From a bacterium ADurb.Bin236 (GTDB taxonomy: Bacteria > UBP15 > UBA6099): a DNA stretch of 64,000 bases. The number at the start of each line of letters is the position of its first letter. The stretch's first letter is position 1. The stretch is taken from contig MWCD01000001.1 of assembly GCA_002069885.1 (NCBI GenBank), positions 2,770-66,769 of the forward strand, given 5' to 3'. Positions 13,456 through 32,512 of the stretch are shown here, in pieces. The translations under genes and the position numbers were made by a program. The notes under the pieces were generated by a model. It was not told where the DNA came from. It worked only from the letters and a program-made list of their open reading frames with translations, and did not search any database.

Positions 13456-16400
13456 ATGACAGACAAAGCAAAAAATCAGACGCAGAGAAAAATGTCGGAA
13501 TTATCTCGGATAAACCAATACGCTGCTGTGATTGCGGCGTTCTGGACTTTTGCCGCGTGCGCGTCGATGTTATGGGGTTTTCAGCTTCAGCGCAACGGGA
13601 TAATAACGCTTGCGAAGAGCCAAGCCCGCGCGGCTTTTCAGAAAGATATTCTTTACCGGAAGTGGAGCGCGGACCGAGGCGGGGTCTACATCAGGGCAAA
13701 CGAGGCCACGCCTCCGAACCCGTATATTCCTGAAAACGCGAGGGAGATTGAGACGTCCGGCGGGGAGAAGCTGACGCTTGTGAATCCGGCATATATGACG
13801 CGGCAGGTTCACGAGATGGGAACGGATGAAAACGGAGTGTTCGGACACATTACGAGCCTGAATCCGATAAGGCCCGAGAACGCTCCGGACGAATGGGAAA
13901 CGGAAGCTTTGAAACTGTTCGAAATAGGCGAAAAGGAAGCGGTGACTGCGGTAAAAACCGGCGACGGCGGCGCTCTGAGATTTATGAGGCCGCTGACAGT
14001 AGAGGCCGGATGTTTGAAATGCCACGCGTCTCAAGGTTACAAGCTGGGAGAGATAAGAGGCGGCATAAGCGTGATGGTTCCGCTCAAGCCGCTAAAGGAA
14101 TCGGTAAGGAGCCACTTGACTGCGATAGCGGCCGGGCACTCCGCGCTCTGGCTGTTCGGAATTGTCGCCATAGCGTCCGGCGCAAGGACTATCCGAAGAG
14201 AAACAAAGCAACGGTTGAAAGACGAGGCGGCTTTGAAAGCCAGCGAGGAGTTTTTGAAGAAATCTCAGGAGATAGCCCATGTGGGTAGCTGGTCGCTCGA
14301 CCTGTCTGACAATTCGATAACTTGGTCGGACGAGGTTTTCAGGATATTCGGACTTGAGCCGGGCAACATAGCCCCAACGTTTGACGCTTTCCTCGAACTG
14401 GTTCATCCAGAAGACAGGGGACAGATTTCAGAAGCGTATGAAAAAGCGATAAAAAGCCATGAACTGACGGAGATCGTCCACAGGATAATCACTCCGGCTA
14501 AACGAACGAGGACGGTAAGGCAGAAAGCATTCATGGCGGACGCGGTCGGGGGAGGCGCGAGGATAGTAGGCACTGTCCACGACATCACCGAGCAACAGGT
14601 ATACGAAGAAAGCCTTAAGATGTCTCGCAAGCTTTGGGAAGACACGTTCAACGCGATAACCGACGTTGTGTTGGTGATAGACAGAGAATTCAAGATATTG
14701 AAAGCCAACAGGATAGCCGAGGACATGTTCGGCTCCGATAGAATTGTCGGCGCGAAATGTCACGAGTTGTTCCACGGGCAGGATTCTCCGCGGCCGTGGT
14801 GTCCGGCGCTTTCGGTTTCGGACACTAAAGAATCAAGGCGCGTCCAGATGAAGGAAGAGTATCTGGGAGGCAGGTGGTTCGACTATTCGGCGCATCCGAT
14901 CTCCGACGAGGTTGGAAATGTGACCCAGATCGTGCTGGTGGCAAGGGACATAACCGAGAAGAAAAGGGCGGAAGAAGAAGCGGCCCGGACCGCGTCGCTT
15001 AACGAGTTGCTCCTTGATTCGTTCCCTCATCCGGCGATGCTCATAGACAAAAACAAAAAAATACTCGCTGCAAACAGGATAGCGAAGAAGATGGGCGCGG
15101 CGCAGGGAGAAAGCTGTTGGAGCAGTTTCGCGGGAATGGCCCGCGCGCCGGGAAACGGGGACGCGGGAAAAGGAGTAGCCGCTCTATCCGCCTGTTCTCA
15201 TCACTGCGACTTCTGTCTCGCTGAAAAGGCTTTCGCGGATATGGAGTCAAAACAGGACTCCAACGTCGGGTTAAAGGGCGGGATATGGGACACACATTGG
15301 GTTCCCGTCGATGAAAACACATATCTGCATTACGCGGTTGATATCTCGGAAATCAGGAAGGCAGAGGAGGCTCTGAGGAAATCGGAGCGGGACCTTGCCA
15401 TAAGAAACAGGATAGCGGATGTGTTCCTTGCGCGCTCTTCAGGCGACGACATGTTCGCGGAAACGCTGGAAGTGGTGCGTAAAGAGCTTGGCAGCGAATA
15501 CGGATACTTCGGCTACATAGACGAAAAAGGGGATTTTGTTTCCGCATCTATGACGCGTGAAGTGTGGGATGTCTGCCAAATTCCGGAAAAGACAAATGTG
15601 TTTCCGAAAGACTGCTGGAACGGGCTTTGGGGACGTTCGCTGATAGGAAAAAGGACGATTTTTTCAAACGAGCCGTTGAAGGTTCCGCAAGGCCATGTTC
15701 CGCTGGACAGGGCAGTAGCGGCGCCGATTGTCTATTCGGGAAAGCTTATAGGGCAGTTGGCGCTGGCAAACAAAAAAGACGATTATACGGATAACGACAT
15801 AAGGTTGATCGACTCGATAACCGAATACATAGCGCCGATCCTTCATTTCAAGTTGACCGCCGAACGCGAAGAGCGCGACAGGAGGAAAGCGGAAACAGCG
15901 ATACGTTCGATCATAGAGGGCACGGCGGCGACGACGGGCAAAGACTTTTTCAGGTCGCTGGCAAAGAACCTCGCGCAGGCGCTTTCCGTGAAATACGCGC
16001 TCATCGCCGAATATCCTGCGGACGCTCCCGGCAAAGCGCGTTCGCTGTCCTTCTGGGCGGGGAACGGATTCGCAGACGATTTCGAATACGATCTGACCGG
16101 AACGCCGTGCGCGGAAGTGTTAGAAAGCGGCAAAGACATCTGCTATTTCCCCAAAAGCGTCAGAGAACTTTTTCCAGATGACGTGGATCTGGCGAAAATG
16201 GGGGCGGAAAGCTATTTGGGAACGTTGATGATGGACTCTGCCGGAAAACGCATTGGGCACGTGGCGGTTCTTGACGACAAGCAAATGGCATTCGATCCAG
16301 ACACGAGAAGAATCTTGAAAGTGTTCGCGGCGCGGGCGCAAGCCGAGATAGAAAGGCTTGGAGCCGAAGAGCAGCTTAAGAGACACAGGGACAGGCTGGA

Positions 16401-17175
16401 AGAAATTGTCGCAGAAAAAACCGTCGAACTAGAAAAGGCGAACCAAGCGGTGTTTCAAACGATGAAATACCAGATGGTGGCGCGTCTATCAATGGGTTTG
16501 TCTCACGAGATAAAGAACCCGTTGGCGATTATGAAAACGCACGCCGAGCTTCTTGAAACCAATGAGGCGGTGGCTAATATCGGCGACGAAGAGATTAGCT
16601 ATTCTCTGTCGGTTTTATTGAAACAGATCGACCGGATATCGACTACTCTGGATAATCTGAGGATTCTATCAAGAGAAAAAGCTTCCGAATTTAAAAACAT
16701 CGAAATCAAGAGTATGATAGGCGAAGTCATCAAGATGTTCTATCCGGCTTTAAGGAAAGCGGGCATAACGGCGAGGCAGTCTTACGCCGAGGACGCTCCT
16801 TCGATAATAGAAGCGGACGAGACGAAGCTGATGCAAATGCTGACGAATCTGGTGTTTAACGCCATGGAAAGCATGTCCGAGAGAGGCGGCAAGTTGACGT
16901 TGTCCCTTGACTCTCTGGAATCCGGCAGACTCGTTCAGATATCGGTGTCGGACACAGGTCGCGGCATTTCTAAAGACAACATTAAGAAGGTGTTCGACCC
17001 GTTCTTCACTACGAAATCGGGAGGAACGGGAATGGGGCTGGCGATTTGCGCGGGCATGGCGGAGGACCACGGCGGCTCGATAAGCGTGGAAAGCGCGGAG
17101 GGCGAAGGCGCGACCTTCAGGTTGACTCTCCCAGCGAGCCAGAGCGCGACTAAGCGGAACGGAGAGAAGGCATGA
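13456..17175 (+). CDS. multidomain sensor histidine kinase: periplasmic DUF3365-like heme-c (CXXCH) domain, PAS and GAF domains, HisKA, HATPase (1239 aa)
   Basis: TM helices at residues ~20-40 and ~215-235. CLKCH is encoded at 14011-14025. PAS-like blocks, GAF-like regions, H-box LSHEIKNPL, and a C-terminal ATPase with DTGRGI...GGTGMGLAI. Confidence 0.85.
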   Translation: MTDKAKNQTQRKMSELSRINQYAAVIAAFWTFAACASMLWGFQLQRNGIITLAKSQARAAFQKDILYRKWSADRGGVYIRANEATPPNPYIPENAREIETSGGEKLTLVNPAYMTRQVHEMGTDENGVFGHITSLNPIRPENAPDEWETEALKLFEIGEKEAVTAVKTGDGGALRFMRPLTVEAGCLKCHASQGYKLGEIRGGISVMVPLKPLKESVRSHLTAIAAGHSALWLFGIVAIASGARTIRRETKQRLKDEAALKASEEFLKKSQEIAHVGSWSLDLSDNSITWSDEVFRIFGLEPGNIAPTFDAFLELVHPEDRGQISEAYEKAIKSHELTEIVHRIITPAKRTRTVRQKAFMADAVGGGARIVGTVHDITEQQVYEESLKMSRKLWEDTFNAITDVVLVIDREFKILKANRIAEDMFGSDRIVGAKCHELFHGQDSPRPWCPALSVSDTKESRRVQMKEEYLGGRWFDYSAHPISDEVGNVTQIVLVARDITEKKRAEEEAARTASLNELLLDSFPHPAMLIDKNKKILAANRIAKKMGAAQGESCWSSFAGMARAPGNGDAGKGVAALSACSHHCDFCLAEKAFADMESKQDSNVGLKGGIWDTHWVPVDENTYLHYAVDISEIRKAEEALRKSERDLAIRNRIADVFLARSSGDDMFAETLEVVRKELGSEYGYFGYIDEKGDFVSASMTREVWDVCQIPEKTNVFPKDCWNGLWGRSLIGKRTIFSNEPLKVPQGHVPLDRAVAAPIVYSGKLIGQLALANKKDDYTDNDIRLIDSITEYIAPILHFKLTAEREERDRRKAETAIRSIIEGTAATTGKDFFRSLAKNLAQALSVKYALIAEYPADAPGKARSLSFWAGNGFADDFEYDLTGTPCAEVLESGKDICYFPKSVRELFPDDVDLAKMGAESYLGTLMMDSAGKRIGHVAVLDDKQMAFDPDTRRILKVFAARAQAEIERLGAEEQLKRHRDRLEEIVAEKTVELEKANQAVFQTMKYQMVARLSMGLSHEIKNPLAIMKTHAELLETNEAVANIGDEEISYSLSVLLKQIDRISTTLDNLRILSREKASEFKNIEIKSMIGEVIKMFYPALRKAGITARQSYAEDAPSIIEADETKLMQMLTNLVFNAMESMSERGGKLTLSLDSLESGRLVQISVSDTGRGISKDNIKKVFDPFFTTKSGGTGMGLAICAGMAEDHGGSISVESAEGEGATFRLTLPASQSATKRNGEKA

Positions 17176-18566
17176 AGGCGAGAATTCTGGTTGTGGACGA
17201 CGAGGCGGACCTTTGCAAAGGCGTGGAGATAGCTCTGAAAAGAGACGGTTATCACGTAGAATCAGTTTTTTCCGGTGAAGAGGCTGTCGAGGTTCTTCAG
17301 GAGAAAAGCTTCGACCTGATTATTCTCGATTATAAGATGACCGGCATGGACGGGCTGGAAACCTTGCGCCAAATCAGGGAGAGATTCGGTGACGTCAGCG
17401 TCATTTTTATCACCGCGCACGGGGATCAGGAGCTTGCCATCAGAAGTTTGGAGCTTGGCGCGACCGAATACATGCACAAACCGTTCAACCTTAAAAATCT
17501 TTCGTTCAGGATTTTCAAGACGCTGAAACTGCATTTGCTGGAAACAGAGATAAAAGAGCTGAAGAAGAATAGCAGAAACAGTTTTTCAGGCATTGTGACG
17601 AGAAATGAAAAGATGAAAGAGATAATGGAGATAGTAGACAGAGTGTCTAAGCATTCAACGCCGGTGCTGATAACGGGCGAGACGGGGACGGGGAAAGAAG
17701 TGATAGCGTCCGCGATACACCACAACACGATGAATCCGAGGAAAGAGAAGGCGTTTCTGACGATAAACTGCGGAGCGGTGCCGGAGCCGCTTATAGAAAG
17801 CGAACTGTTCGGGCATGTAAAAGGCGCGTTTTCAGGAGCGGTTATGGACAAGCAGGGCTTATTTGAGGTCGCAGACGGGGGAACAATCTTTCTGGATGAA
17901 CTTACAAGCGCATCTCCAGCTCTCCAAACAAAACTGCTTCGCATACTCGACTGCGGCGAATATTTAAGGGTGGGCGACACCGCGACAAGGAAGGTTGACG
18001 CGCGGGTTGTCGCCGCAACAAACAAGGACATCCCCGGCGAAATCGAGAAGGGCAATTTCAGGATAGACCTTTATCACAGGCTCAAAGTGGTTCAAATCGA
18101 ACTTCCGCCTCTGAGGGACAGGATAGAGGACATCGAACCGCTGGCGAGGCGTTTTCTCGAAATCTATAACGCGGAGATGGGCAGAAGCGTGAGCATGTCG
18201 GCGGACGCTTTAAGCGTTCTTAAAAGCTATCCTTGGCCGGGCAACATAAGGGAGCTTAAGCACTGCATGGAGAGCGTCGTTCTTATGTGCCGCGGAGAAA
18301 TCATACGGCCTGAAGACCTTCCTGAAAGGATGCGGCTTCTCGACGACAACGAGCTTTCCGGCGATTTCTCAGAGATGAAATCCCGTCTGCTGGAAAACTT
18401 CGAAAGGAAATACTTTGCTTCCATTATTAAAGAAGCGGGCGGAAATATTTCAAAGGCGGCTGATCTGGCAAACCTGAGCCGGGTGTATCTTGCAAAAAAG
18501 CTTAAAGAATACGGGATAGACGCCAAAGAAGAAAAGCAAAGCTCCGGAGATTCTCCCGGCAAATAA
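17172..18566 (+). CDS. sigma-54-dependent response regulator (NtrC family: REC + AAA+ + Fis-type HTH)
   Basis: Receiver ILVVDDE...ILDYKMTGMDG, Walker A GETGTGKE, GAFTGA-type ESELFGHVKGAFSGA, C-terminal HTH. The start overlaps the kinase stop (atga). Confidence 0.9.
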   Translation: MKARILVVDDEADLCKGVEIALKRDGYHVESVFSGEEAVEVLQEKSFDLIILDYKMTGMDGLETLRQIRERFGDVSVIFITAHGDQELAIRSLELGATEYMHKPFNLKNLSFRIFKTLKLHLLETEIKELKKNSRNSFSGIVTRNEKMKEIMEIVDRVSKHSTPVLITGETGTGKEVIASAIHHNTMNPRKEKAFLTINCGAVPEPLIESELFGHVKGAFSGAVMDKQGLFEVADGGTIFLDELTSASPALQTKLLRILDCGEYLRVGDTATRKVDARVVAATNKDIPGEIEKGNFRIDLYHRLKVVQIELPPLRDRIEDIEPLARRFLEIYNAEMGRSVSMSADALSVLKSYPWPGNIRELKHCMESVVLMCRGEIIRPEDLPERMRLLDDNELSGDFSEMKSRLLENFERKYFASIIKEAGGNISKAADLANLSRVYLAKKLKEYGIDAKEEKQSSGDSPGK

Positions 18567-18954
18567 AACTCTTTTTTATTTTCGTATTAATAACATAATC
18601 GGTTTGGCGGCTATGCTGCCGAATGTCGTATCGCGCCTCTTTTTCGAGCGGCTGATCTTGCCGAAGCATCAAAAAAACAGTAGTTATCATATTAAGTCGA
18701 GAAAATAATCCCGCATCGAAAAAGGAATATTTATTACTAGCGCACGTGAGCGGCAGTTGAAGACGTCAACTGTTGTTGGCATTCGCTACCTATCACGCGC
18801 CGCGCGCGGCGGTTCTTATCCAAAATAAATAAACCTTTAACACAAACGATATTTTTATCGTTTCGATTGCGCGCCGCGCCTATGGCTCGTGTTGGCAGGC
18901 TAATTGATATATTAGAACCGCAAGCAGGACGTGACAGGGGGAAACGAAACGCTG

Positions 18955-19371
18955 ATGGAAAACATAGCCGTAGAAACAAGTTTCTCGCAACCTAGGCTGC
19001 TGCTTGTGGACGACGACGCCGGTTTCAGGGAGAACATTGAGGAAATTCTAGACAGGTCATCGATTCAACACGTGTCCAAAGAGGGCGGCGCCGACGCAAT
19101 AAAAGAATTGATACATAACAAAAAAGGTTTCGACTGCGTGCTGCTTGATATGCACATGGGCGGGATAAGCGGAGTGGACACAGCGCGCATGATTAAGAAG
19201 TTGAAGGGCGCGTTGCCGATAGTGATGATGGGAACGGGCGAGTCGCTCCTGATGGAGATAACCGCGCGGACTATAGGATCAAATTGCCATTATATAAAGA
19301 AGCCGTTCAGCGAGGAAGAACTGGTGGACGCGCTGAGACGGTCTATAAGCGCGCCGACGGGAGAGCGCTAA
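18955..19371 (+). CDS. cheY: CheY-like receiver protein
   Basis: LLLVDDD...VLLDMHMGG...K receiver. Start taken at ATG 18955 (AGGGGG upstream). A GTG at 18931 is the alternative. Confidence 0.75.
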   Translation: MENIAVETSFSQPRLLLVDDDAGFRENIEEILDRSSIQHVSKEGGADAIKELIHNKKGFDCVLLDMHMGGISGVDTARMIKKLKGALPIVMMGTGESLLMEITARTIGSNCHYIKKPFSEEELVDALRRSISAPTGER

Positions 19372-19373
19372 AA

Positions 19374-22106
19374 ATGGAAGATAGAGTTAAGACGGCGATA
19401 GAAAATCTCTCGGCGTTGGTGGCGGAGTTCGATGCGGATGACGCGGCGATAAGCCGTTTGATACTTGAAGCAATTGAGGAGATTCGGGATTCGGCGACGG
19501 ATAAGATGGCGGCGCTGCTGGACAAGGTTGAAGGAGCGGTGGTCGACATCTGCGCGGGCGAAACGGATTTTGCCGCCGCTTATGAGGCGTTGGTCTCGGC
19601 GGTCGGCGCGGTTCAGAAGGAGCAGGAATGCGGAGGAAATGCCGAAGACAAGCCCGCAATGCCTGCGGAAGACTTATTTGAGGTTGAGATTCAACACGAT
19701 GTGCTTTCAGGGCTGATTGAACAGGCCGGCCCTTCGAACGACCACGTCACCGGCGTGTGCGGAGACCTTTTCGAGAAGATAGCGGCGGTGAAGACGCTGC
19801 CCGGCAGCTTGAGAAAAAAGATAGGCTACATAGTTGAAACGATAAGTTCTCGCTCCTATGAAAGCGGCCCGTTTGAGGCTCTTGCGGCCCGAATGGAAGA
19901 AGCGGTCGCGGAGGTGGGGAGGACGCTGAAAGAAGCGAAAAGGACGATTGACGCCGAATCCAAATTTGTTGACGACGAGGATTTGACCTCGGTTTTTCTG
20001 GAGCGCCAACAGGCGGCTCTCAATGAGTTTGAATCGGATATATTGAAAGTTGAAAAAGGCGACGCGGTCGCGGCGCTGGATGTGGCGACGACTGTGGGAC
20101 GGCTCGCGGAGGAAACATCCGCCCTTGGGATGAAAGAGGCGGCGGTTTTCCTTGAGAGGCTTTCGGGGCTTATGGGCACAGAGCCGCCGTCGGCTGAAAA
20201 GAAGAAGATAGACGCGTTGCTTGTTTTGAAGGACATACTGCAGGAACATTTCGACGCGTTGTCCGAGGGGCGCGAAGGAAAAATCGACGCGGCGCGCGCC
20301 GAATCGGTCGCTGTTGCGTTCCGAACCGGGCAGGCGCGCCCGGTTGTAAGAACCGAACACGGCTCTGCGAAAAGAATCGCGCCGAAGGTGGTTGTGGACG
20401 CTTCCAACCCGGATTTTCCGGAGTTTATCGCCGAAACCCGCGACTACATCCAAGCGGCGGAAGCCGCGATGATTTCTCTTGAGAAAAACCCGGACGACAA
20501 AGAATGCCTGAATGAGATATTCAGGTGTTTCCATAATGTGAAAGGCATATCGGGTTTTTTCAGTTTGACGGATGTCAACGAGTTGTCTCACAACGCGGAA
20601 ACATTGTTAGACAAGGCCAGAAAAGGGGCAATGGAATTCACTTCCGAGTGCGCCGCAGCGTCGTTCGAAGCGCTGGACATGCTAAAAGAGATGCTGGAGC
20701 GGGTCGAGAGAGCGCTGGGCGGAGGGGCATACAATTCGCCGGAAAGATGGGCGGAACTCATAAACAGGTTGGAGATGATAGCTGCCGGGCAGACGCCGCC
20801 GGAGGCTCAGCGCGCGATTCCGGCGGAAACCAAGCCGCGACCAGCCGCTGAAACGGCAGCGCAAGAGGACTCCGCAGGGGAAAATGTAGTTGCGTCAGTA
20901 GGCCCCGCTGACTTGTCAGCAAATGGAGCTTCAAATCAGAACGCGGGCATGGTCAAAGTCAGCACGAAACGGCTGGACAGCCTGATCGACGCGGTGGGGG
21001 AGCTTGTGATAGCCAACGCGATGGTCACTCAAAGGCTAGAGTTGAAAAATACGATAGACGCCGACCTCGCCCGCAACGTCAACCAGTTGAACAAGATAAC
21101 CCGCGAGCTTCAGGAGCTTGCGATGAGCATGAGAATGGTTTCGTTGAAGAGCGTGTTTCAAAAGATGGCGCGCGTGGCGAGAGACACCTCTATAAAGGCG
21201 GGGGTTCCGATGGAATTCTCGTTTTCAGGAGAAGACACCGAACTGGATCGAAATGTTGTCGAAGAGATAAGCAGCCCGCTGGTGCACATGGTGAGGAACG
21301 CGGTTGACCACGGGATAGAGCCGAGCGAGGAGCGGATGCGCTTGGGCAAGCCGCCGATAGGGAAGATAAAGCTGTCGGCATTCCATGAGGGCGGCGGCGT
21401 GATAATCAGAATCGAAGATGACGGACGAGGACTGGACAGGGAAAGAATAATAGAGAAGGCGCGCAGGCTTGGGATGGTCAGGCCGGACGCCGAACTGAGC
21501 GACCGCGAGGCGTATTCTCTGATATTCAACGCCGGATTTTCCACTGCCGAAAAAGTAACAGACATATCGGGCAGAGGCGTGGGGATGGACGTTGTGAGGC
21601 GCAACATTGAGAGTTTAAGAGGCAGAGTCGAGATAGATTCCTCGAAGGGGAAAGGCTCTGTTTTCACCATAAGGTTGCCGCTGACGCTTGCGATAATAGA
21701 CGGCATGGTGGTGAGGATAGCGGATGAGAACTACATAGTTCCGACGATAGCCATAAGAGAATCGCTGAGGCCGGCGCGGGAGCAATTGACCACAGTGGCC
21801 GGCAAGGGCGAGATGCTTTCGGTTCGCGGAGACCTCATGCCATTGTTCAGGCTGAACAGGTTGTTCGAGGTGGAAAACGCGAAAGAAGACCCGTGCGACG
21901 CGCTGGCTCTGGTGCTGGGAAACAACGGTTCGAGTTGCGCGCTCATGGTGGACGACCTTGTGGGGCAGCAACAGGTGGTCATCAAATCTCTCGGCAAGTC
22001 TTTCGGCAGTCTCGAAGGATTGTCCGGAGGCGCGGTTATGGGAGACGGGCGGGTCGCATTGATTGTGGACGCGGCCGGGCTGGCAAGGCTGGCAAAGAAT
22101 TCTTGA
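19374..22106 (+). CDS. cheA: chemotaxis histidine kinase CheA (Hpt, dimerisation, HATPase, CheW-like domains)
   Basis: Hpt FHNVKGISGFF, ATPase N/G boxes HMVRNAVDHGIE and RIEDDGRGLD, C-terminal CheW-like domain. ATG 19374 has an RBS. The ORF-track start 19284 is rejected because it overlaps the upstream gene. Confidence 0.9.
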   Translation: MEDRVKTAIENLSALVAEFDADDAAISRLILEAIEEIRDSATDKMAALLDKVEGAVVDICAGETDFAAAYEALVSAVGAVQKEQECGGNAEDKPAMPAEDLFEVEIQHDVLSGLIEQAGPSNDHVTGVCGDLFEKIAAVKTLPGSLRKKIGYIVETISSRSYESGPFEALAARMEEAVAEVGRTLKEAKRTIDAESKFVDDEDLTSVFLERQQAALNEFESDILKVEKGDAVAALDVATTVGRLAEETSALGMKEAAVFLERLSGLMGTEPPSAEKKKIDALLVLKDILQEHFDALSEGREGKIDAARAESVAVAFRTGQARPVVRTEHGSAKRIAPKVVVDASNPDFPEFIAETRDYIQAAEAAMISLEKNPDDKECLNEIFRCFHNVKGISGFFSLTDVNELSHNAETLLDKARKGAMEFTSECAAASFEALDMLKEMLERVERALGGGAYNSPERWAELINRLEMIAAGQTPPEAQRAIPAETKPRPAAETAAQEDSAGENVVASVGPADLSANGASNQNAGMVKVSTKRLDSLIDAVGELVIANAMVTQRLELKNTIDADLARNVNQLNKITRELQELAMSMRMVSLKSVFQKMARVARDTSIKAGVPMEFSFSGEDTELDRNVVEEISSPLVHMVRNAVDHGIEPSEERMRLGKPPIGKIKLSAFHEGGGVIIRIEDDGRGLDRERIIEKARRLGMVRPDAELSDREAYSLIFNAGFSTAEKVTDISGRGVGMDVVRRNIESLRGRVEIDSSKGKGSVFTIRLPLTLAIIDGMVVRIADENYIVPTIAIRESLRPAREQLTTVAGKGEMLSVRGDLMPLFRLNRLFEVENAKEDPCDALALVLGNNGSSCALMVDDLVGQQQVVIKSLGKSFGSLEGLSGGAVMGDGRVALIVDAAGLARLAKNS

Positions 22107-22174
22107 CAAAGGCGGAAAGCGAGGCGTGTTTCGGCCTCGCGAAAATATTGACAACTATGGAAAGGAGGCATGAG

Positions 22175-22690: not shown

Positions 22691-22730
22691 AAGCCCGAAG
22701 CGAAATTTAAGAACAGGCGGAGGCGGAAAG

Positions 22731-24989: not shown

Positions 24990-25016
24990 ACGCAACCTTT
25001 CAAAAGATAGTCTTGC

Positions 25017-25060
25017 GACGGAGCCGGGAAACCGGCTCCGTCTTGCTTTTGTCTGTTTTT
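25017..25060 (+). terminator. rho-independent terminator after the MCP gene
   Basis: gacggagccgg-gaaa-ccggctccgtc hairpin followed by ttgcttttgtctgttttt. Confidence 0.75.
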
Positions 25061-25419
25061 CATTGATCGCTACCGAATCCTATGAAGGATTCGGGTTGAT
25101 TCGGCTGTCGGCAAGCGGCTCTCGAAAACGTTGCCAACGCCTTTCGGGCGCGTGTTTCTTGTCTTTTAGCAGGCTGATTAATGAAAACTGCGCAATTATA
25201 GAAAAAACGGCTGTTGTCATTACAAAAAGCTTAAATATTACATTTGCAAAAGGAATTTGTGTTTTCGCGCATGGGTGAGCCAGATAGTTTGTGATTACTG
25301 TTGTTTTCAAAAAAGATGTCTATTGCTTCGCGTAAGTGAAGCGCAGAAAAAAATAAATAAGCCTTTAATAATGCTGATATATCCACATATTGCGCGTTTC
25401 GCTAACGTTCACGGAGATG

Positions 25420-25436
25420 TCGGCATAGCAATTGCA
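25420..25436 (+). promoter_or_regulatory. candidate sigma-54 (-24/-12) promoter tCGGCATagcaaTTGCA upstream of cheR
   Basis: GG at 25422-25423 and GC at 25434-25435 have the canonical 10-nt spacing, and the -12 element is TTGCA. It lies 34 nt upstream of the cheR ATG, and a sigma-54 activator is encoded in the same island. The -26 T is replaced by C. Confidence 0.4.
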
Positions 25437-25469
25437 TTACTTATTAAAACAAAAGAGGGAAAACGGAAG

Positions 25470-26312
25470 ATGACTGCAACGCAACACTACGAACTGAAAG
25501 ACAGAGAATTCAGGAAAATCAGTTCCATAGTATATGACGCATGCCGGATAAATTTGAGAGACGCGAAAAAGGAGCTAGTGCAGGCAAGGCTGGCAAAAAG
25601 GCTCCGGGCGCTAGGCATGGACAGTTACGGCGACTATCTCGACCTTATCGAGAAAGACGCCTGCGAACACACGATAATGATCGATTATCTTTCGACGAAC
25701 CTGACGATGTTTTTTCGCGAGAGGGGACATTTCAACTACCTTGCAGAAGAAGTTTTTCCGCGGATAAGCGAGAGTTCCACTGGAAGGATATGGAGCGCGG
25801 GATGCTCGTCGGGAGAGGAAGCGTACACGCTGGCGATGTTGTTGAGGGAGAACTTGCCGAAGATAAATCTGATGGATTGCCTGATTCTTGCCACAGACAT
25901 TTCAACGAGAATGCTCGAAGCCGCAAAGCGAGGCGTTTACACCGCAAAGCGAATGGAAAACGTGCCTGAAGACATGCTTGAAAAGTATTTCAGGAAAACC
26001 GGAAGAGCGGAAGAGACATTCTTCGAGGCGGGCGCGGCGCTCAAATCGCTTATACGGTTCAGGTACTTAAATTTGATCGGGCCGTGGCCGATGGACGCGA
26101 AGTTCGACGCGATACTTTGCAGGAACGTGATGATATATTTCGACAAGCCGACGCAGCAGGAGCTTGTGGCGCGTTTTTACAACCTTCTGAAGCCCGGCGG
26201 GATTTTCATCGTAGGACATTCCGAAAGTCTAGTGGGAATAAACCATGATTACACATTCGTGCGCCCGTCAATATACAAACGGCCCGCAGGAGAGGAGAGA
26301 GTCGCGTTATGA
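25470..26312 (+). CDS. cheR: chemotaxis protein methyltransferase CheR
   Basis: RIWSAGCSSGEEAYTLAML SAM-binding signature. ATG 25470 has an RBS. The upstream ORF extension is rejected. Confidence 0.9.
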   Translation: MTATQHYELKDREFRKISSIVYDACRINLRDAKKELVQARLAKRLRALGMDSYGDYLDLIEKDACEHTIMIDYLSTNLTMFFRERGHFNYLAEEVFPRISESSTGRIWSAGCSSGEEAYTLAMLLRENLPKINLMDCLILATDISTRMLEAAKRGVYTAKRMENVPEDMLEKYFRKTGRAEETFFEAGAALKSLIRFRYLNLIGPWPMDAKFDAILCRNVMIYFDKPTQQELVARFYNLLKPGGIFIVGHSESLVGINHDYTFVRPSIYKRPAGEERVAL

Positions 26313-26785
26313 CACACAACGTGGGAATATCAGACCTGAAGGTTTCAAACGATCCCGGAGACGACATCAAGACTCATTCGCTCGGCTCTTGCGTCGGGGT
26401 TACGATGTACGACCCTGCGGTTTCAGTGGGCGGAATGCTGCATTATCAACTGCCGTCGGCGCGGGAACACTCGGAAAAAGCCGCGACGAATCCATACATG
26501 TTCGGAGATACGGGAATCACAGAACTGATGAAGGAAGTGTTTGAACGGGGCGCGGACAAGCGCCGGCTCGTGGTGAAACTGGCGGGCGGCTCAAACGTCG
26601 CCGATAAAAACGGCTTCTTCAACATAGGAAAAAGGAATCTCATCATCGCAAAGAAATTCCTCTGGAAGAACGGCCTTTTAATCACCGGCGAGGATGTGGG
26701 CGGCGAAACTTGGCGCAACCTCAAACTCGAATTGGGAAGCGGCCGCGTTTCAATAAAAAGCGGCGACGGCGAATTTGACATATAG
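26309..26785 (+). CDS. cheD: chemoreceptor glutamine deamidase CheD
   Basis: HSLGSCVGVTMYDP...GGMLHY CheD core. Overlaps the cheR stop (translational coupling). Confidence 0.85.
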   Translation: MTHNVGISDLKVSNDPGDDIKTHSLGSCVGVTMYDPAVSVGGMLHYQLPSAREHSEKAATNPYMFGDTGITELMKEVFERGADKRRLVVKLAGGSNVADKNGFFNIGKRNLIIAKKFLWKNGLLITGEDVGGETWRNLKLELGSGRVSIKSGDGEFDI

Positions 26786-26796
26786 GAGGTTCGGCC

Positions 26797-27201
26797 ATGT
26801 CTTTCAACATCATGATAGTCGACGACTCAACCATTATCCGCACGATGATTAAAAGAACGATAACTCTGGCCGGAATTCCAACGGGCATAATCGTCGAAGC
26901 GCAAAACGGGGCGGAGGCGTTAGTTTCCCTCGGCGAAAACTGGATCGACCTGATTTTTACGGATATCAACATGCCGGTGATGGATGGGGTTGAGATGCTG
27001 GAAAGAATCAGCCGCGAAGAAAGAATCAGCGACACTCCAGTGATAGTTGTCTCGACTGAAGGAAGCGAAACGAAAATCGACCGCTTGACGCGAATGGACA
27101 ACGTGAAAGCGTTCATAAGAAAGCCTTTCGCTCCGGAGAATCTCCGAGACGCCGTTGAAGCGGCGCTGTCGGAGAGAATTCAGGAGGCTGCAAATGCTTG
27201 A
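26797..27201 (+). CDS. cheY: CheY-like receiver protein
   Basis: IMIVDDS...IFTDINMPVMDG...K receiver. Confidence 0.8.
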   Translation: MSFNIMIVDDSTIIRTMIKRTITLAGIPTGIIVEAQNGAEALVSLGENWIDLIFTDINMPVMDGVEMLERISREERISDTPVIVVSTEGSETKIDRLTRMDNVKAFIRKPFAPENLRDAVEAALSERIQEAANA

Positions 27202-27682
27202 CGAGAAGCTTCGGCAGGTTGCTCAAAGGATATTAGAGGACGCGGCGTTCGTTTTTGTGGACGGGGGGGCAGAAGACGCTATCGAGCTTCTTAACGGAGA
27301 AAACGCGTTGTCGGCGACGCTGGAATTCGACGGCGAGTTCTCAGGCTCGATGTCCATGTCCGCTTCTTATTCATTGGCGAAAACAATGGCGGCAAATCTC
27401 CTTGGCGCGGACGATCTCGACCCTGAAGCTGAAAGCAAAAAGACCGACGCTATCGGAGAGCTGCTTAACATGGTTTGCGGAAACCTGCTGCCGGAAATAG
27501 CGGGGACTTCTCCTGAATTCAAAATTGGCGCGCCTCGCGCCGTGTCGTTTGACGAGACTAAGCGTCAGTCAGCGGATATTGCCCGCTCAAACGGAAGCTT
27601 GGTTGCCATGTCGGTTGAAGGATGTGAAGTCGTGATGTCGTTATTGATTAACGACGAATCCGGAGCGGGAGAACGTGTGTGA
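27194..27682 (+). CDS. cheX: CheX-like (CheC-family) phosphatase
   Basis: IGELLNMVCGNLL block typical of CheX. ATG 27194 overlaps the CheY stop. Confidence 0.65.
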   Translation: MLDEKLRQVAQRILEDAAFVFVDGGAEDAIELLNGENALSATLEFDGEFSGSMSMSASYSLAKTMAANLLGADDLDPEAESKKTDAIGELLNMVCGNLLPEIAGTSPEFKIGAPRAVSFDETKRQSADIARSNGSLVAMSVEGCEVVMSLLINDESGAGERV

Positions 27683-27746
27683 TCGCTTGCGGCTCCCATT
27701 TTGAAGATGAGGCGGACGAAAGAGATAAGAGCGAACAGCGGAAAGG

Positions 27747-29531
27747 ATGATAAAAATGAGCGAAAACGGAAAAGTGAATATCGAGATATCAGGAGACGAG
27801 ATGACGGCGGTGGCCTTCATAACTCCTCCCGGCCTGACAGGCAAACCGGTGGAAGTGGCGGATGTGAAAAAGTCGCTCGAAGAAGCCGGCGTCGTTCACG
27901 GCATAGTGAACAATGAGCGAATTAAATCGTTCGTTGACGAGGGGCGGCTGATCCCAATTGATTTTCTCGCGGCGGCTGGAACCCGTCCCGGGCATGGCGC
28001 GGACGCTTCTATTGAAAACGTCTGGCTTAAAAAAGACGCTCCCGCCAGAATCGACGAAAAAGGCAGGATCAACCTGCGCGAGCTTAATGTCGTGAAATCC
28101 GTGTCTCAGGGTGAAACCATCGCGGTGAAAACGCCGCCCACTCGCGGCGAGACCGGGATGACCGTTAAAGGCGTTGAAATTCCCGGCGAGTGGGGTTCCG
28201 ACGTTTCATTCAAGGCGGGCCGCAATGTAATCGTTTCTGACGACGGGTTGGAGTTCAGGGCCGCAATCAGCGGCTCCCCGAATTACGCGGGCGGAATCCT
28301 CAATGTCGATCCGGTGTTTGTCGTGGATGGCGACGTGGATTACTCCACCGGAAATATCAACTTCGCCGGGGCGCTCGATATAAGAGGAAACGTGCAGGAC
28401 GGTTTCGTTGTCAGGGCAGAGGGAAACATTACGATCGGGGGGAATGTTCAGGCTGCGGAAGTGGTTTCCGGTGGCGATGTCGTTGTGAAAGGCGGCATAA
28501 TCACGCGGCATGAGGGCGTCGTCGCGGCGGCCGGTAGCGTAAGCGCGAAGTTTATCGAAAATTCCGAAGTCGAGGCCGAGGGAGACGTGGTGGCTGAGCG
28601 AGCCGTCATCAATAGTCTCGTCAAATGCAATGGGACCGTGATTTGCTCGGACGGCGAGGGAAAAATCATGGGCGGCGAAATCATGGCCTATAACGAAATC
28701 CGCGCAAAACATCTCGGTTCGGACAAAGAGTCCAAGACCACGCTCCGCGCGGGTTTCAAGCACGACATATACATAAAAATGTCTGAAATGGAAAAAAAAC
28801 TTGAGGAAATAATCGAGGAAGCCGCCGGTCTTCAGAAAAACCTCCTCGCAAAAAACGCCAAACCGGAACTGGTCGCCGAGGTGAAACAGAAAATCCAGTC
28901 TCTTGAGACCGAAAAGTTAGGCCTTCAGCAGAGAATCGCTTCGCTTCGCCTCCGGGTTCAGGTGAACCCGTTTGCGACGGTGAAAGGCGAGGAATACATA
29001 CATCCCGGCTGCGTGGTTTACATCGGCGGTTCAAGGGAAAGGATAGCGAACCCCCTCAAGTTCGCCACTCTTATGGCGGACGCTGACGGGGGCGTGGCGT
29101 TGTCGTCTTACGACGAAACCAGCGGAAGCATCAAAACGGTTAGAGTCGGCTCGAAAGAAAAAAAGAAAACTGTCATGATAGTGGACGACGCCAGATTCAT
29201 GAGAAACAAACTCAAGAACATCCTCGAAAACGGCAACTTCAGAGTGGTTGGCGAAGCCGAGGACGGCAGACAGGCGGTGATGTTGTTCCAGAAACTCAAG
29301 CCAGATGTCGTGACCATGGACATAACGATGCCAGATGTCGACGGCATCAGCTCTTTGCGGGCGATAAAGAAAATTCATCCGGACGCAAGAGTCGTTATGA
29401 TATCGGCGCTCGGACAGAAAGAGAAAGTCCGCGACAGTCTTGTTGCCGGCGCGAGGGACTTTATTATAAAACCTTTCATCCCTGAGAAAGTCATCGACAC
29501 CATGACTAAAGTTCTTGAAAAAACCAACTGA
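27747..29531 (+). CDS. FapA/DUF342 domain protein fused to a C-terminal CheY-like receiver (594 aa)
   Basis: N-terminal DUF342-type beta-helical repeats (GNINFAGALDIRGNVQDGFVV...GGNVQAAEV), a coiled-coil segment, then VMIVDDARFMRNKL...VTMDITMPDVDG...K. Confidence 0.7.
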   Translation: MIKMSENGKVNIEISGDEMTAVAFITPPGLTGKPVEVADVKKSLEEAGVVHGIVNNERIKSFVDEGRLIPIDFLAAAGTRPGHGADASIENVWLKKDAPARIDEKGRINLRELNVVKSVSQGETIAVKTPPTRGETGMTVKGVEIPGEWGSDVSFKAGRNVIVSDDGLEFRAAISGSPNYAGGILNVDPVFVVDGDVDYSTGNINFAGALDIRGNVQDGFVVRAEGNITIGGNVQAAEVVSGGDVVVKGGIITRHEGVVAAAGSVSAKFIENSEVEAEGDVVAERAVINSLVKCNGTVICSDGEGKIMGGEIMAYNEIRAKHLGSDKESKTTLRAGFKHDIYIKMSEMEKKLEEIIEEAAGLQKNLLAKNAKPELVAEVKQKIQSLETEKLGLQQRIASLRLRVQVNPFATVKGEEYIHPGCVVYIGGSRERIANPLKFATLMADADGGVALSSYDETSGSIKTVRVGSKEKKKTVMIVDDARFMRNKLKNILENGNFRVVGEAEDGRQAVMLFQKLKPDVVTMDITMPDVDGISSLRAIKKIHPDARVVMISALGQKEKVRDSLVAGARDFIIKPFIPEKVIDTMTKVLEKTN

Positions 29532-29544
29532 GGCGGATACGGCG

Positions 29545-30081
29545 ATGAAAGCGGTTTTTCTGAATCCTTTTGTGAAGTCTGTTTTTGAGATACTCGAAAG
29601 CGTGGTTTATGAGACTCCCGAAAAAGGCGACATATTCATCCGGGAACGGTATCCGTGCAACATGGAGACCGTCTCGGCGATGGTTGGCATAACCGGAAAG
29701 CTTACGGGGCAGGTGACGCTGACCATGAGCCGCAAGTCGGCAATCTCCATCGCGGCAAAAATGATGATGGAGGATGGACTTGAGGAATTGGACGAATGCG
29801 CCCAGAGCGCGCTCGCCGAGATGGCGAACATGGTGGCCGCCAACGCCGCCGCCAGCCTATGCGACGACGGATATGAATGCGACATCACCACTCCGACGGT
29901 GATTACCGGCTCCAACATCGAGATTTCCTTCAGGCCGGAAGTAAAAACTATCGTTATTCCGCTTACGCTCAGCGTAGGCAGCATCGACGTGAATATTTCA
30001 GTGGCCGAGACATCTTTTATAAAAGGGTTGCAAGGCTCCGCGCGCGCGGCATCCGAAACTGCCGCCGCAGGGGCGATTTGA
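29545..30081 (+). CDS. cheX: second CheX-like (CheC-family) phosphatase
   Basis: MVGITGKLTGQVTLTM...LAEMANMVAANAA matches the CheX family. ATG 29545. Confidence 0.6.
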   Translation: MKAVFLNPFVKSVFEILESVVYETPEKGDIFIRERYPCNMETVSAMVGITGKLTGQVTLTMSRKSAISIAAKMMMEDGLEELDECAQSALAEMANMVAANAAASLCDDGYECDITTPTVITGSNIEISFRPEVKTIVIPLTLSVGSIDVNISVAETSFIKGLQGSARAASETAAAGAI

Positions 30082-30108
30082 AATACTGAAAGTTTAATTG
30101 AGGTTATT

Positions 30109-30516
30109 ATGGCGGCTTTTAACTGGAGCGATAAATATTCGGTAAATGTGGCCGAGATGGACGCGCAACATAAAAAACTAGTGGGGCTTCTTAACGAGCT
30201 TGACGAGGCCATGAGTCAGGGCAAAGGAAGAACCATCGTCGGAAGGATTCTATCGGGTCTGGTCGATTACGCGGCGACTCACTTCCGAGATGAGGAATCT
30301 CTGATGGAGCGGCATGGTTTCGCAGACATTGAGGCGCACAAGGCTCTTCACGACAAGTTGACGGCCCAAGCCACAAGCCTCAACGCTGAGTTTCAAGCGG
30401 GAAGCATTTCTGTCACCATAGATACTATGAATTTCCTTACGAACTGGCTGACCGACCACATTCTCGGAACGGACAGCAGGTACGGCGCATATCTCAACGG
30501 GAAAGGAATATACTGA
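30109..30516 (+). CDS. bacteriohemerythrin (hemerythrin-like metal-binding domain), 135 aa
   Basis: MDAQHKKL, HFRDEE, HKALH and TNWLTDHI His/Glu iron ligands spaced as in hemerythrin. Confidence 0.8.
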   Translation: MAAFNWSDKYSVNVAEMDAQHKKLVGLLNELDEAMSQGKGRTIVGRILSGLVDYAATHFRDEESLMERHGFADIEAHKALHDKLTAQATSLNAEFQAGSISVTIDTMNFLTNWLTDHILGTDSRYGAYLNGKGIY

Positions 30517-30563
30517 ATCCGGTTCATCCGAGCGTGAAGCGGCTGCGGTAAGGTTAATCATCG

Positions 30564-31850
30564 ATGAGCGAATCATCTTGCAACTTGTCTGGCGTGGCTC
30601 TTGTGATGTCGGATTTTTTAGATTTGGTGAACCCGAAACTGTCCGGGCATCACAGGTCAGTTGCGTATATCGCAATGTCCGTGGCGGAAAGGCTGGGCCT
30701 GCCGTCCGAGAGCAAAGAAGACATAATACTGGCGTCTCTAACACACGACATAGGCGCGCTTTCCGTTGCCGACAGGATGGAGGCGCTGGATTTCGAGTTC
30801 GTCGACGCCGACAGCCACGCGCGAGCCGGAAGCAGGCTGATCGCAGCGTGCGCTCCGCTTTCCGGCGTGGCGGACATTGTGGCCCGGCATCATGAATGGC
30901 ACGACTCATTCGTAAAATCAGGGGTGGACGCCGACATTGCGTTGAGCGCCTCGATAGTCCATCTCGCCGACAGGGTGTCCATTCTGCTGAACGACAGCTC
31001 CGAGCCGTTGTCGCAACGCAAGAAAATAATCGAAAAAATATCCAAAAGGGCAGGCGGAATGTTCAACCCGCGGGTCGCGGCCGCATTCATCGAAGAATCG
31101 CGCCGCGAAGCGTTCTGGTTCGGCACATTGCCGGAATTCAGAGACTCGGCCATCGCAAGGTTCGTGTCTGAAAACGGGGACGTTGACCTGTCAACGGCTG
31201 ACATGCTCGATGTGGCTAAGCTCTTCTGCCGGATAATAGACTACCGGAGCAGTTTCACCGCCGCGCATTCAGCGGGAGTGGCGGCCTGCGCCAGCGCTAT
31301 CGGCGGCTGCCTAGGTTTGCCGAACCATGAAAAAGCGCGGCTGGAAACTGCGGGCTATATGCACGATATCGGCAAAATGGCGGTTCCTTCATCCCTTATT
31401 GAAAAAAGAGGCGGGCTTGCCGACGAAGAGTTCAACATAGTGAAGTCTCACGCGTTTTATACTTATCACCTTCTGGACAAACTACCCTGTTTTTCCGTCG
31501 TCAGGGATTACGCCGCCATGCACCACGAAAAAATAAACGGGAACGGCTATCCTTTCAAACTCAAAGGCGGCGAGATACCGACGGGAGCCAGAATCGTGGC
31601 GGTCGCAGACGTGTTCACAGCCCTCTCAGAAGACCGTCCGTTCAGAAAAGCCTTAGCATTGGATGACACAATCAAAACTATCGACGAGATGGCTTCAGAC
31701 GGCTCTCTTGACGGCGATATCACGCGCGCGCTCAAATCCAACCTGAGCCTTGTCGATTCAGCCAGAGCAAAAGCGCAGCGCGCAGCCATTTTTGAATACC
31801 GCTCTTTCGAGGACGGACGCGGAATAATCGCTCACAGCGCGTCAGCTTAA
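30564..31850 (+). CDS. tandem-HD protein: degenerate N-terminal HD domain plus canonical C-terminal HD-GYP c-di-GMP phosphodiesterase domain
   Basis: First domain has LTHDIG...HHEWHD with no GYP. Second has MHDIGK...HHEKINGNGYP. Confidence 0.8.
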   Translation: MSESSCNLSGVALVMSDFLDLVNPKLSGHHRSVAYIAMSVAERLGLPSESKEDIILASLTHDIGALSVADRMEALDFEFVDADSHARAGSRLIAACAPLSGVADIVARHHEWHDSFVKSGVDADIALSASIVHLADRVSILLNDSSEPLSQRKKIIEKISKRAGGMFNPRVAAAFIEESRREAFWFGTLPEFRDSAIARFVSENGDVDLSTADMLDVAKLFCRIIDYRSSFTAAHSAGVAACASAIGGCLGLPNHEKARLETAGYMHDIGKMAVPSSLIEKRGGLADEEFNIVKSHAFYTYHLLDKLPCFSVVRDYAAMHHEKINGNGYPFKLKGGEIPTGARIVAVADVFTALSEDRPFRKALALDDTIKTIDEMASDGSLDGDITRALKSNLSLVDSARAKAQRAAIFEYRSFEDGRGIIAHSASA

Positions 31851-31903
31851 CTAACGAAAGGCCGGACGACGCCGACAACTAGGCAATCCGGGATAATGGA
31901 GAT

Positions 31904-32512
31904 ATGGAAAACACAGCCAGAAAATTTATCAGATCAAAAAAAATCCTTGTTGAGAACGTGGAGCCGGGGATGACGCTCGCAGAGGACATTAAAACCGCAG
32001 CGGGCGGAGTAATTCTTCCGGCGGACTCCATCCTATCAATGACCAACATCGAGAGGTTGAAAGAGTTTGATATTTTCTCGATATATGTCGAGGAAGAGAC
32101 AGTTCTCCGGGAGTCCGACGCAATGCGCGGGAAGCGAGCTGTGGTTATCGACGACGCTCTTTTCTTCAGGCACATGTTCTCCAAGATGCTCTACAAGATG
32201 GGCATATTCGTGATGGAAGAAGTGGAAACCGCAGAGGAAGGCGTGTGCCACGCGAGAAAATACCGGCCGGACCTCGTGATAGTCGATATCCATCTTCCCG
32301 GCATGACCGGTATAGAAGCGATTAGGGACATAAAAAGCAAATGCAGCGGCTCGAAATGCGTCGCAGTTTCCACTGACAAAGACCGGAAGACGGTAGTGGA
32401 CGCCCTGCGCGCCGGAGCCGATGACTTTCTGGTCAAACCTGTAATGTGGGATCGCCTCAAACCTAGGATATGCAAACTATTTGATAGTGGCAAAGACGCT
32501 GTTGTCATGTGA
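31904..32512 (+). CDS. response regulator with an N-terminal domain of unknown function and a C-terminal receiver
   Basis: VVIDDALFFRHM...VIVDIHLPGMTG...K receiver in the C-terminal half. Confidence 0.7.
   Translation: MENTARKFIRSKKILVENVEPGMTLAEDIKTAAGGVILPADSILSMTNIERLKEFDIFSIYVEEETVLRESDAMRGKRAVVIDDALFFRHMFSKMLYKMGIFVMEEVETAEEGVCHARKYRPDLVIVDIHLPGMTGIEAIRDIKSKCSGSKCVAVSTDKDRKTVVDALRAGADDFLVKPVMWDRLKPRICKLFDSGKDAVVM

Follow-up and report, generated by a model that had tools for sequence, protein, structure and literature searches.

A probable accessory chemosensory pathway of F7-like kind, lacking CheB and carrying a FapA-receiver fusion, in an uncultured digester bacterium

Chemosensory systems of the F7 class are paired with receptors of the 36H heptad class (PMC9321776; PMC7184735). 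The gene order of ancestral F7 clusters is cheY-cheA-cheW-aer2-cheR-cheD-cheB; what these ancestral clusters do "remains unclear", and motor control is not their role (PMC7184735). Two further protein families of the locus described here are known from other settings: the FapA protein of Vibrio vulnificus is a flagellar assembly and positioning protein (PMC7914778), and a hemerythrin-HD-GYP fusion acts as a redox-gated phosphodiesterase of cyclic di-GMP (c-di-GMP) (PMC9388753). The locus is a chemosensory (che) gene cluster that, together with the kinase and activator genes ahead of it, occupies positions 13456-32512 of a 64,000-nucleotide stretch (the window) of a single contig, MWCD01000001.1, from the bacterium ADurb.Bin236. 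We read the cluster as an accessory chemosensory pathway with a 36H receptor, F7-like in kind, in an uncultured ADurb.Bin236-like digester bacterium, and give this reading, including the mechanism proposed below, a probability of roughly 55%.

The source lineage is an uncultured bacterium, found in abundance in metagenomes of anaerobic digesters. For its DnaE, all relatives down to approximately 54% identity are unclassified ('bacterium'), and the nearest named relatives are Bacillota, at 47-50%. The gene findings come from Pfam profile searches of the proteins encoded in the window. Exact-match look-ups gave only strains that are more than 99.6% identical, besides one relative of 95% nucleotide identity (L086, GCA_029573925.1). 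Homologous clusters from more distant relatives were fetched with the FapA-receiver fusion as a marker (L003, L004, L006 and L082). Copies of the cluster that are identical or more than 99.6% identical are present in at least eight assemblies, where every open reading frame (ORF) is intact.

All genes of the locus lie on the forward strand, and each domain assignment made in an earlier note on this DNA is confirmed by Pfam, with support from NCBIfam. The che genes form two operons. The first consists of cheY1, which encodes a single-domain receiver (18955-19371), cheA (19374-22106), whose product of 910 amino acids has Hpt, dimerisation, HATPase and CheW domains, cheW (22103-22690; 138 bits), and the gene of a transmembrane PAS-diHAMP chemoreceptor (22731-24989), in which Pfam recognises PAS, HAMP and methyl-accepting chemotaxis protein (MCP) domains. 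It is closed by an intrinsic terminator (25017-25052), in which a T tract comes after an 11-bp stem (25017-25042) that has nine G-C pairs. This is the strongest terminator in the region and is kept in the 95% relative; the division into two operons that the note had drawn is upheld.

The second operon begins with cheR, which encodes a methyltransferase of 280 amino acids, and cheD (26309-26785), which encodes a deamidase and possible methylesterase. These are followed by cheY2 (26797-27201), cheX1 (27194-27682), the gene of the fusion of FapA_N, FapA beta-solenoid and CheY-like receiver domains (27747-29531), cheX2 (29515-30081), the gene of a single-domain bacteriohemerythrin of 135 amino acids (30109-30516; 62.9 bits), the gene of a phosphodiesterase with two tandem HD_5/HD domains (30564-31850), and finally the gene of a receiver protein of 202 amino acids with an N-terminal domain of approximately 75 residues (31904-32512; hereafter the last receiver). 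The start of cheR is assigned to 25470 (gene 25470-26312) and not to 25257, because the longer frame is interrupted by a 1-nucleotide indel in the 95% relative, and the sequence is conserved among relatives only from just past 25470.

The motifs expected of these proteins are in place. None of the five receivers has lost the acidic pocket or the lysine (D12, D13, D57 and K109), and CheY1 has a glycine at the T87 position. Each CheX, scoring above the Pfam cut-off, has a single D/S-x3-E-x2-N-x22-P site, at residue 85 in CheX1 (in the D form) and at residue 98 in CheX2. No CheZ was found in the window, and the phosphatases are of the CheX type, as had been proposed. Compared with the 95% relative, the 12 genes from cheA to the last receiver have ratios of nonsynonymous to synonymous substitution (dN/dS) of 0.00-0.31 at dS values of 0.07-0.41, and cheX2 has a dN of 0. 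These genes are under purifying selection. Because the ratios are low in a comparison with a relative of the same layout, the CheB-less, HD-GYP-bearing version of the cluster is taken to be maintained by selection and is not decaying.

The receptor belongs to heptad class 36H. It aligns without a gap over 291 residues with residues 229-519 of E. coli Tsr, whereas indels are needed to align it with the 44H Thermotoga receptor TM1143. The receptors of related clusters (L003, L082 and L184) are gapless to it over 250-293 residues, which places them in class 36H as well. The ancestral F7 gene order is matched through cheD; cheB is missing in the window, and in the relatives it follows an inserted cheY-cheX pair. 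The F7-like assignment is therefore well supported as a proxy from receptor class and gene order, which is distinct from a formal assignment by class models. The reliance on such proxies for the F class counts against our reading. An 'alternative cellular function' pathway had been suggested earlier; the 36H receptor points to an F7-like system rather than to an unclassified member of that group.

Among the core proteins, the best NCBIfam matches of CheA, CheR and the MCP are enteric or Aer2 models, all below the equivalog cut-offs, and the CheA core scores 345 bits against E. coli CheA and 328 bits against T. maritima CheA. No P2 domain was found in CheA by the Pfam scan. The Hpt domain of CheA is preceded by an extension of approximately 340 amino acids (19374-20420) without a Pfam match, which is also present in relatives, with only a few conserved helical blocks. 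An Aer2-type heme-b receptor was considered for the cluster and rejected: the similarity to Aer2 is weak (E 6e-8) and lies mostly in the HAMP region, and the receptor has two transmembrane segments and a Cys-rich insert in its PAS domain.

A second chemoreceptor gene is present in the window (56599-59202, minus strand). Its product has a CHASE4 domain and three HAMP domains, and its signalling domain is near-gapless to the 44H Thermotoga receptor and aligns poorly with the 36H receptor. Next along the window come the genes of a binding protein of the phosphonate type (59292-60167) and of a PAS hybrid kinase (60246-62960). Since this receptor is of a different, 44H-like class, the organism very probably has another chemosensory system, as judged from these alignments.

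The relatives L003, L004, L006 and L082 share the gene order cheY-cheA-cheW-receptor-cheR-cheD-cheY-cheX-cheB-(cheX)-FapA-REC-cheX-receiver, where REC is the receiver domain of the fusion and the terminal receiver has approximately 206 amino acids. On this gene order, the outputs that are conserved across the clade are the FapA-receiver fusion and the receiver of approximately 205 amino acids, and not the hemerythrin or the HD-GYP enzyme. In the window fusion, the FapA_N and FapA domains score 128.9 and 222 bits, well above their cut-offs, and the receiver scores 97 bits. The fusion family comprises approximately 27 clusters, all from metagenome-assembled genomes (MAGs), as found by scoring 8000 word-sharing candidates from 5.8 billion proteins. 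A search of solved structures with the FapA part gave nothing usable, and a supposed link between DUF342 and Caulobacter CpaM proved to be wrong and was not used, the domain being DUF3426 and residing on ZitP. The fusion predicts that FapA is regulated by phosphorylation, and it gives biochemical access to the FapA/DUF342 family, of which little is understood.

The surroundings of the cluster vary among relatives. Its neighbours include type IV pilus genes (L003), sugar hydrolases (L004) and a hybrid kinase (L002 and L084). The pilus genes near the L003 cluster (15974-20771) encode a PilT-like ATPase, PilC and a prepilin peptidase. In one MAG, JBAYJY01 (L004 and L005), there are two separate che clusters, each with a FapA-receiver gene; divergent CheA, CheW, CheR and CheD proteins, with 31-46% identity to those of the window, are encoded by the second of these. 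The closest relative of the fusion, with 68% identity, is in L082 (3922-5156 and 11863-13563), where the cluster also encodes an N-terminally truncated second CheR and a metallo-beta-lactamase-fold protein. The latter was considered as an ODP-type O2 sensor and was not used, as the Pfam ODP match was marginal (27.8 bits against a cut-off of 27.2) and the best matches in the Protein Data Bank (PDB) were glyoxalase II enzymes. A protein encoded downstream in L082 joins a module resembling the last receiver to a glycosyltransferase, a hint of a polysaccharide output.

In a competing explanation, the cluster is simply a second chemotaxis operon of the ordinary flagellar sort: the motor is the target of phosphorylated CheY, the FapA fusion helps to place the flagellum, CheB comes from another Che system, and the HD-GYP enzyme co-regulates motility. 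The sole characterised FapA governs flagellation in Vibrio (PMC7914778), which makes a motility role as plausible as a non-motility role and weakens the accessory reading. The fusion receiver is 50-56% identical to the motor-type CheY of Bacillus, one or more additional Che systems are implied by the window's other receptor, which is of a different class, and F7 systems drive flagella in some lineages (PMC7184735; PMC9321776). However, flagellar genes are absent from the window and are not consistently found near the cluster in relatives. Receptors of different heptad classes are not expected to share arrays or adaptation enzymes, which speaks against such sharing between the 44H-like and the 36H receptor. 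Moreover, four receivers, two phosphatases and a phosphodiesterase exceed the needs of motor control. We regard a flagellar operon as an unlikely explanation, although it keeps some real weight, and prefer the accessory pathway.

Regulation of the pathway is suggested by the genes that precede it. A sensor histidine kinase of 1239 amino acids (13456-17175), with Tll0287-like heme-c, PAS, GAF, HisKA and HATPase domains, is encoded ahead of an NtrC-type sigma-54-dependent response regulator (17172-18566) with receiver, Sigma54_activat and HTH_8 domains. The two genes overlap by 4 nucleotides, and the phospho-acceptor Asp/Lys residues of the activator are intact. The Tll0287-like domain scores 77.6 bits against a cut-off of 24.1, and the kinase has one CXXCH motif (CLKCH, residue 186) flanked by hydrophobic helices at residues 22-42 and 221-241. 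A fair reading is that the N-terminal region is a periplasmic c-type heme sensor, with heme binding as a predicted property; a sequence search detected no solved homologue of this domain. The PAS domain of the kinase contains a Cys-rich insert, C...CSHHCDFC, at residues 554-587 (15115-15216), and the receptor has a Cys-rich insert at residues 272-287 of its PAS domain (23544-23591). These inserts matched no known motif, and suggest a common metal or redox cofactor.

The regions upstream of cheY1 (18720-18907) and cheR (25248-25435) are colinear paralogues at a constant offset of 6528 nucleotides, with several common blocks of 9-21 nucleotides. Their diagonal score of 17 was reached in none of 2000 shuffles, in which the maximum was 9. 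At the same register, both regions end in a GG-N10-G(C/A) element that resembles a -24/-12 promoter; the sigma-54 consensus used was GG at -24 and GC at -12 (TGGCAC-N5-TTGC). The element before cheR, CGGCAT-AGCAA-TTGC (25421-25435), matches the GG at -24 and the GC at -12 with exact spacing, and remains unchanged in the 95% relative although the flanking bases vary. It is the only occurrence of the strict pattern GGCAY-N5-TTGC in the 64 kb, and it lies in the correct orientation, 35 nucleotides ahead of the cheR start. The element before cheY1 is TGGCAG-N5-TTGA (18893-18907), and the copies of more than 99.6% identity give no variation by which the operon 1 promoter could be judged. This pattern is suggestive of putative sigma-54 promoters for both che operons, which would be served by the activator encoded just upstream.

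Several observations argue the other way, and would fit a kinase and activator that are merely neighbours, regulating other genes while the che operons use other promoters. Firstly, the cheY1 element lacks the GC at -12 and has TTGA instead. Secondly, relaxed sigma-54 patterns are not enriched in the window and stand at chance level (43 found, 52.8 expected), and sigma-70-like hexamers are possible. Thirdly, the clusters of the more distant relatives L003 and L006 have no kinase/activator pair next to them; their upstream flanks encode other receivers, including a LuxR-type regulator in L003. A metagenome scan with the sigma-54 activator returned only relatives of at most 41% identity, and so gives no view of the linkage between the pair and the che genes. 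On the other hand, the pair lies in the same repeat-bounded segment as the che operons, on the same strand and 388 nucleotides upstream; the duplicated upstream architecture is common to both operons, with its promoter-like element at one register; and the window has the strict motif only once, close to cheR. Mere neighbourhood seems to us rather improbable, and control of the che operons by the activator is the reading that we carry forward.

The hemerythrin and the tandem HD enzyme distinguish the window from its more distant relatives with the FapA fusion. The hemerythrin has the diiron ligand pattern H, HxxxE, HxxxH and HxxxxD (AQH, HFRDE, HKALH and HILGTD). In the HD protein, the C-terminal domain is a full HD-GYP domain (YMHDIGK and HHEKINGNGYP; HD_5 154.8 bits), while the N-terminal domain keeps the HD, lacks the GYP and is degenerate. 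Its best PDB match is V-cGAP3 (5z7c, 1.2e-35). The substrate could be either c-di-GMP or cyclic 3'3'-GMP-AMP (3'3'-cGAMP), between which the sequence does not decide. That both genes belong to the che operon, as claimed earlier, is borne out by gaps of 27-53 nucleotides, by the lack of a plus-strand terminator and by their position between the conserved cheX2 and last-receiver genes. In the relatives that carry the FapA fusion (at most 68% identity) there are no hemerythrin or HD-GYP genes, and cheX2 is followed directly by the last receiver. On this comparison, the pair is a species-level insertion between two conserved cluster genes. The HD-GYP enzyme had been named as the likely output of the pathway; the enzyme is indeed encoded in the operon, but it is limited to the species-level lineage, and the conserved outputs differ.

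Three lines of evidence argue for a functional tie of the hemerythrin and the HD-GYP enzyme to the pathway: their embedding in the operon, the gene context in L184 and the N-terminal domain of the last receiver. The nearest HD-GYP homologue with a usable context, at 44% identity, closes a homologous che cluster in L184, with the order PAS receptor (62% identical)-cheR-cheD-cheY-cheX-cheB-cheY-HD-GYP; the product of the cheY directly before the HD-GYP gene shares 62% identity with the FapA-fusion receiver. For the N-terminal domain of the last receiver, 26 relatives could be detected in a set of 1.84 billion representatives. Among nine longer homologues tested, this domain precedes HD-GYP domains in six cases and receivers in the other three, with a weak DUF3391 signal in one. 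Thus, the last receiver resembles the regulatory part of an RpfG-like protein, with the HD-GYP gene inserted just before it. An AlphaFold model of the last receiver, made with no alignment, had a mean predicted local distance difference test score of 44.6 and was not used. The described hemerythrin-HD-GYP fusion provides a precedent for a free hemerythrin acting on a neighbouring enzyme. Elsewhere, in L187 (8001-11656), a stand-alone tandem HD-GYP homologue lies by genes for a rubredoxin-flavin reductase and a hybrid-cluster protein, a redox/nitrosative-stress context.

The two genes might instead be passengers, co-transcribed with the che genes and functionally unlinked to CheA signalling. 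Their absence from all FapA-fusion relatives at 68% identity or less is compatible with this, and the sampled homologues of the HD-GYP enzyme are mostly stand-alone (three of four). In addition, the relatives retain the last receiver without an adjoining HD-GYP gene, so its primary partner may differ; both of the latter facts tell against a dedicated link to the pathway. However, the insertion sits exactly before a receiver whose N-terminal domain is elsewhere fused to HD-GYP enzymes, the closest sampled homologue with usable context closes a homologous che cluster, and purifying selection acts on both genes (dN/dS 0.31 and 0.05). Passenger status is therefore a poor explanation in our judgement, and a functional tie to the pathway is favoured. 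A hemerythrin gene, an HD-GYP gene and then a receiver with an HD-GYP-type domain amount to a hypothesis of how Che signalling could be coupled to cyclic-dinucleotide turnover in an uncultured anaerobe lineage.

The absence of CheB, which the earlier note had pointed out, holds for the whole window: a tblastn search of the 64 kb with the CheB of a relative gave receiver-domain matches only, and no cheB remnant is found at the 64-nucleotide junction (27683-27746) between cheX1 and the FapA fusion gene. This is the cheB slot of the relatives, as cheB stands after cheX1 in L003, L004, L082 and L184. The 95% relative has the same derived layout as the window, with cheB absent. Because cheB belongs to this type of cluster, the spacer is taken as a deletion site. 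From these gene orders, cheB is missing through a recent lineage-specific deletion and not as a design feature of the family.

The rest of the adaptation machinery is retained. Where Tsr is methylated, the receptor still has Glu/Gln pairs; CheR is intact, and CheD has its Cys/His catalytic pair. The best NCBIfam match of CheD is the Thermotoga deamidase/glutamate methylesterase model, below its cut-off. Thermotoga CheD is reported to hydrolyse receptor methyl esters (Chao et al. 2006, Cell). For this reason, the simplest model is that CheD replaces CheB as the receptor demethylase, an activity predicted here by analogy. It is also possible that the CheB of another system acts in trans on the receptor, and cross-talk with another Che system is possible, given the 44H-like receptor encoded in the same window. 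With CheR and CheD kept, CheB lost and the genes under purifying selection, the lineage offers a natural test of CheD as the sole demethylase in vivo. It is hardly credible that the deletion marks a decaying cluster on its way to pseudogenisation: it is uncommon for an enzyme of the adaptation core to be lost when CheR is retained, but all ORFs are intact in at least eight assemblies and the low dN/dS ratios were obtained against a relative with the same deletion.

Taken together, these features suggest the following mechanism. The heme-c kinase would sense the periplasmic redox state or a gas and phosphorylate the sigma-54 activator, which would switch on both che operons. The transmembrane PAS receptor, with CheW and CheA, would then direct the phosphorylation of CheY1, CheY2, the FapA fusion and the last receiver, and the two CheX proteins would reset these four CheY-type receivers. 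CheR would methylate the receptor, and CheD would provide deamidation and probably demethylation, CheB being deleted. Two outputs are envisaged. A clade-wide output would be a phosphorylation-controlled FapA, presumably acting in the assembly or positioning of a polar organelle. A species-specific output would be the tuning of the tandem HD-GYP enzyme by the last receiver and the hemerythrin, such that chemosensory and O2/redox input converge on the hydrolysis of c-di-GMP or 3'3'-cGAMP.

The most specific parts of this scheme are CheD as sole esterase, a receiver-FapA protein under Che control, a 'split RpfG' with hemerythrin gating the HD-GYP enzyme, and the heme-c/sigma-54 switch. As a set, they seem to us unlikely. 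If true, cyclic-dinucleotide hydrolysis would be the point at which signals from ligands, redox state and O2 come together, and both outputs would be unprecedented.

The mobility of the locus was raised by the proposal that it is an island bounded by attachment (att) sites. An intact tRNA-Leu(CAA) gene (44528-44613, minus strand), recognised by ARAGORN and Rfam, is the source of a repeated core: the 3' 54-58 nucleotides occur in three copies, the core being identical to 44528-44581. The left att-like repeat (12950-13166) has the tRNA-Leu 3' fragment at approximately 12957-13010, followed by a 156-nucleotide arm. The middle repeat (32703-33189) has the fragment at 32980-33033, flanked by both types of arm. 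The sequences 12950-13166 and 32973-33189 are 83% identical over 217 nucleotides, and 32703-33033 and 44250-44581 are exact copies besides one 1-nucleotide indel, with arms at 32703-32979 and 44250-44526. The repeats delimit two adjoining segments, one with the kinase, activator and che genes (13011-32979) and the other with DUF11 surface-protein genes (33034-44527), and the repeat junctions recur in independent assemblies. tRNA-derived repeats at both borders are thus confirmed.

Horizontal portability, which had been suggested together with the att-bounded island, is plausible but unproven. No integrase was found among the window ORFs by Pfam scans, composition does not shift (G+C 0.49-0.56 within and outside the segment), and no empty att site was found among the contigs reached by the exact-match look-ups. 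In the 95% relative, homology ends 7 nucleotides past the last receiver gene and is followed by unrelated genes without a tRNA fragment, which is the only sign of mobility. The further idea that the pathway controls the DUF11 genes is not sustained, as repeats set these genes off in a separate segment, and in the 95% relative they do not adjoin the cluster. At 33864-44015, on the minus strand, that segment encodes four DUF11/CLIPPER-repeat proteins, one of which, at 2006 amino acids, has a long C-terminal region without repeat matches. Just outside the left repeat lies a stand-alone receiver gene (9909-10328), by a URO-D-like gene and an SCP2-domain gene (9424-9756). At the window's left end (117-3139, minus strand), BatA-like and DUF58 genes belong to an operon of the aerotolerance type.

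Placed beside described systems, the cluster belongs to a known kind, that of accessory F7-like pathways. It departs from it in the loss of CheB, in two CheX proteins, in the FapA-receiver fusion, in the gain of the hemerythrin and HD-GYP genes, and in its likely sigma-54 control through a heme-c kinase. Current models are not overturned, and the catalogue of F7-like outputs and adaptation layouts is extended.

The closest counterparts are Che2 of Pseudomonas aeruginosa and cluster III of Vibrio cholerae, which represent ancestral stage 1/2 of F7 (Ortega et al. 2020, PMC7184735). The likeness lies in the core order cheY-cheA-cheW-PAS 36H receptor-cheR-cheD-(cheB), in the lack of cheZ, in the accessory position beside another receptor class, and in a function that is not tied to the motor. 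In contrast to the soluble multi-PAS/HAMP heme-b receptor Aer2, the window receptor is transmembrane and has one PAS domain. The window cluster also has no anti-sigma antagonist or phosphatase genes of that kind, cheB is deleted, and a cheY-cheX-FapA-REC-cheX-REC series is added; the host is not a proteobacterium.

The adaptation proteins resemble those of the CheC/CheX-CheD modules of Thermotoga and Bacillus, in that CheX has a single site and CheD is closest to the Thermotoga model. These systems have 44H receptors and keep CheB, whereas the window has a 36H receptor and CheB is missing. The Vibrio vulnificus FapA shares the FapA_N and FapA beta-solenoid domains of the window fusion, but it has no receiver and is controlled by EIIA-Glc sequestration, while the window fusion has a C-terminal CheY-like receiver and is encoded in a che operon.

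For the species-specific output, the Bhr-HD-GYP protein of Ferrovum (PMC9388753) likewise pairs a diiron hemerythrin with an HD-GYP phosphodiesterase. It is a fusion, unlike the separate genes of the window, which encode a tandem HD enzyme and lie within a che operon. V-cGAP3 of V. cholerae (5z7c), a tandem HD-GYP phosphodiesterase of 3'3'-cGAMP, has the same degenerate N-terminal HD domain and catalytic C-terminal HD-GYP domain; strong similarity to the window enzyme covers the C-terminal half only, and substrate preference is not readable from it. Finally, Wsp-type pathways, in which CheA signals to a CheY-GGDEF protein, also couple a chemosensory core to cyclic-dinucleotide turnover. The Wsp enzyme synthesises the dinucleotide, whereas that of the window degrades it, is not fused to a receiver, and is associated with a receptor of a different class.

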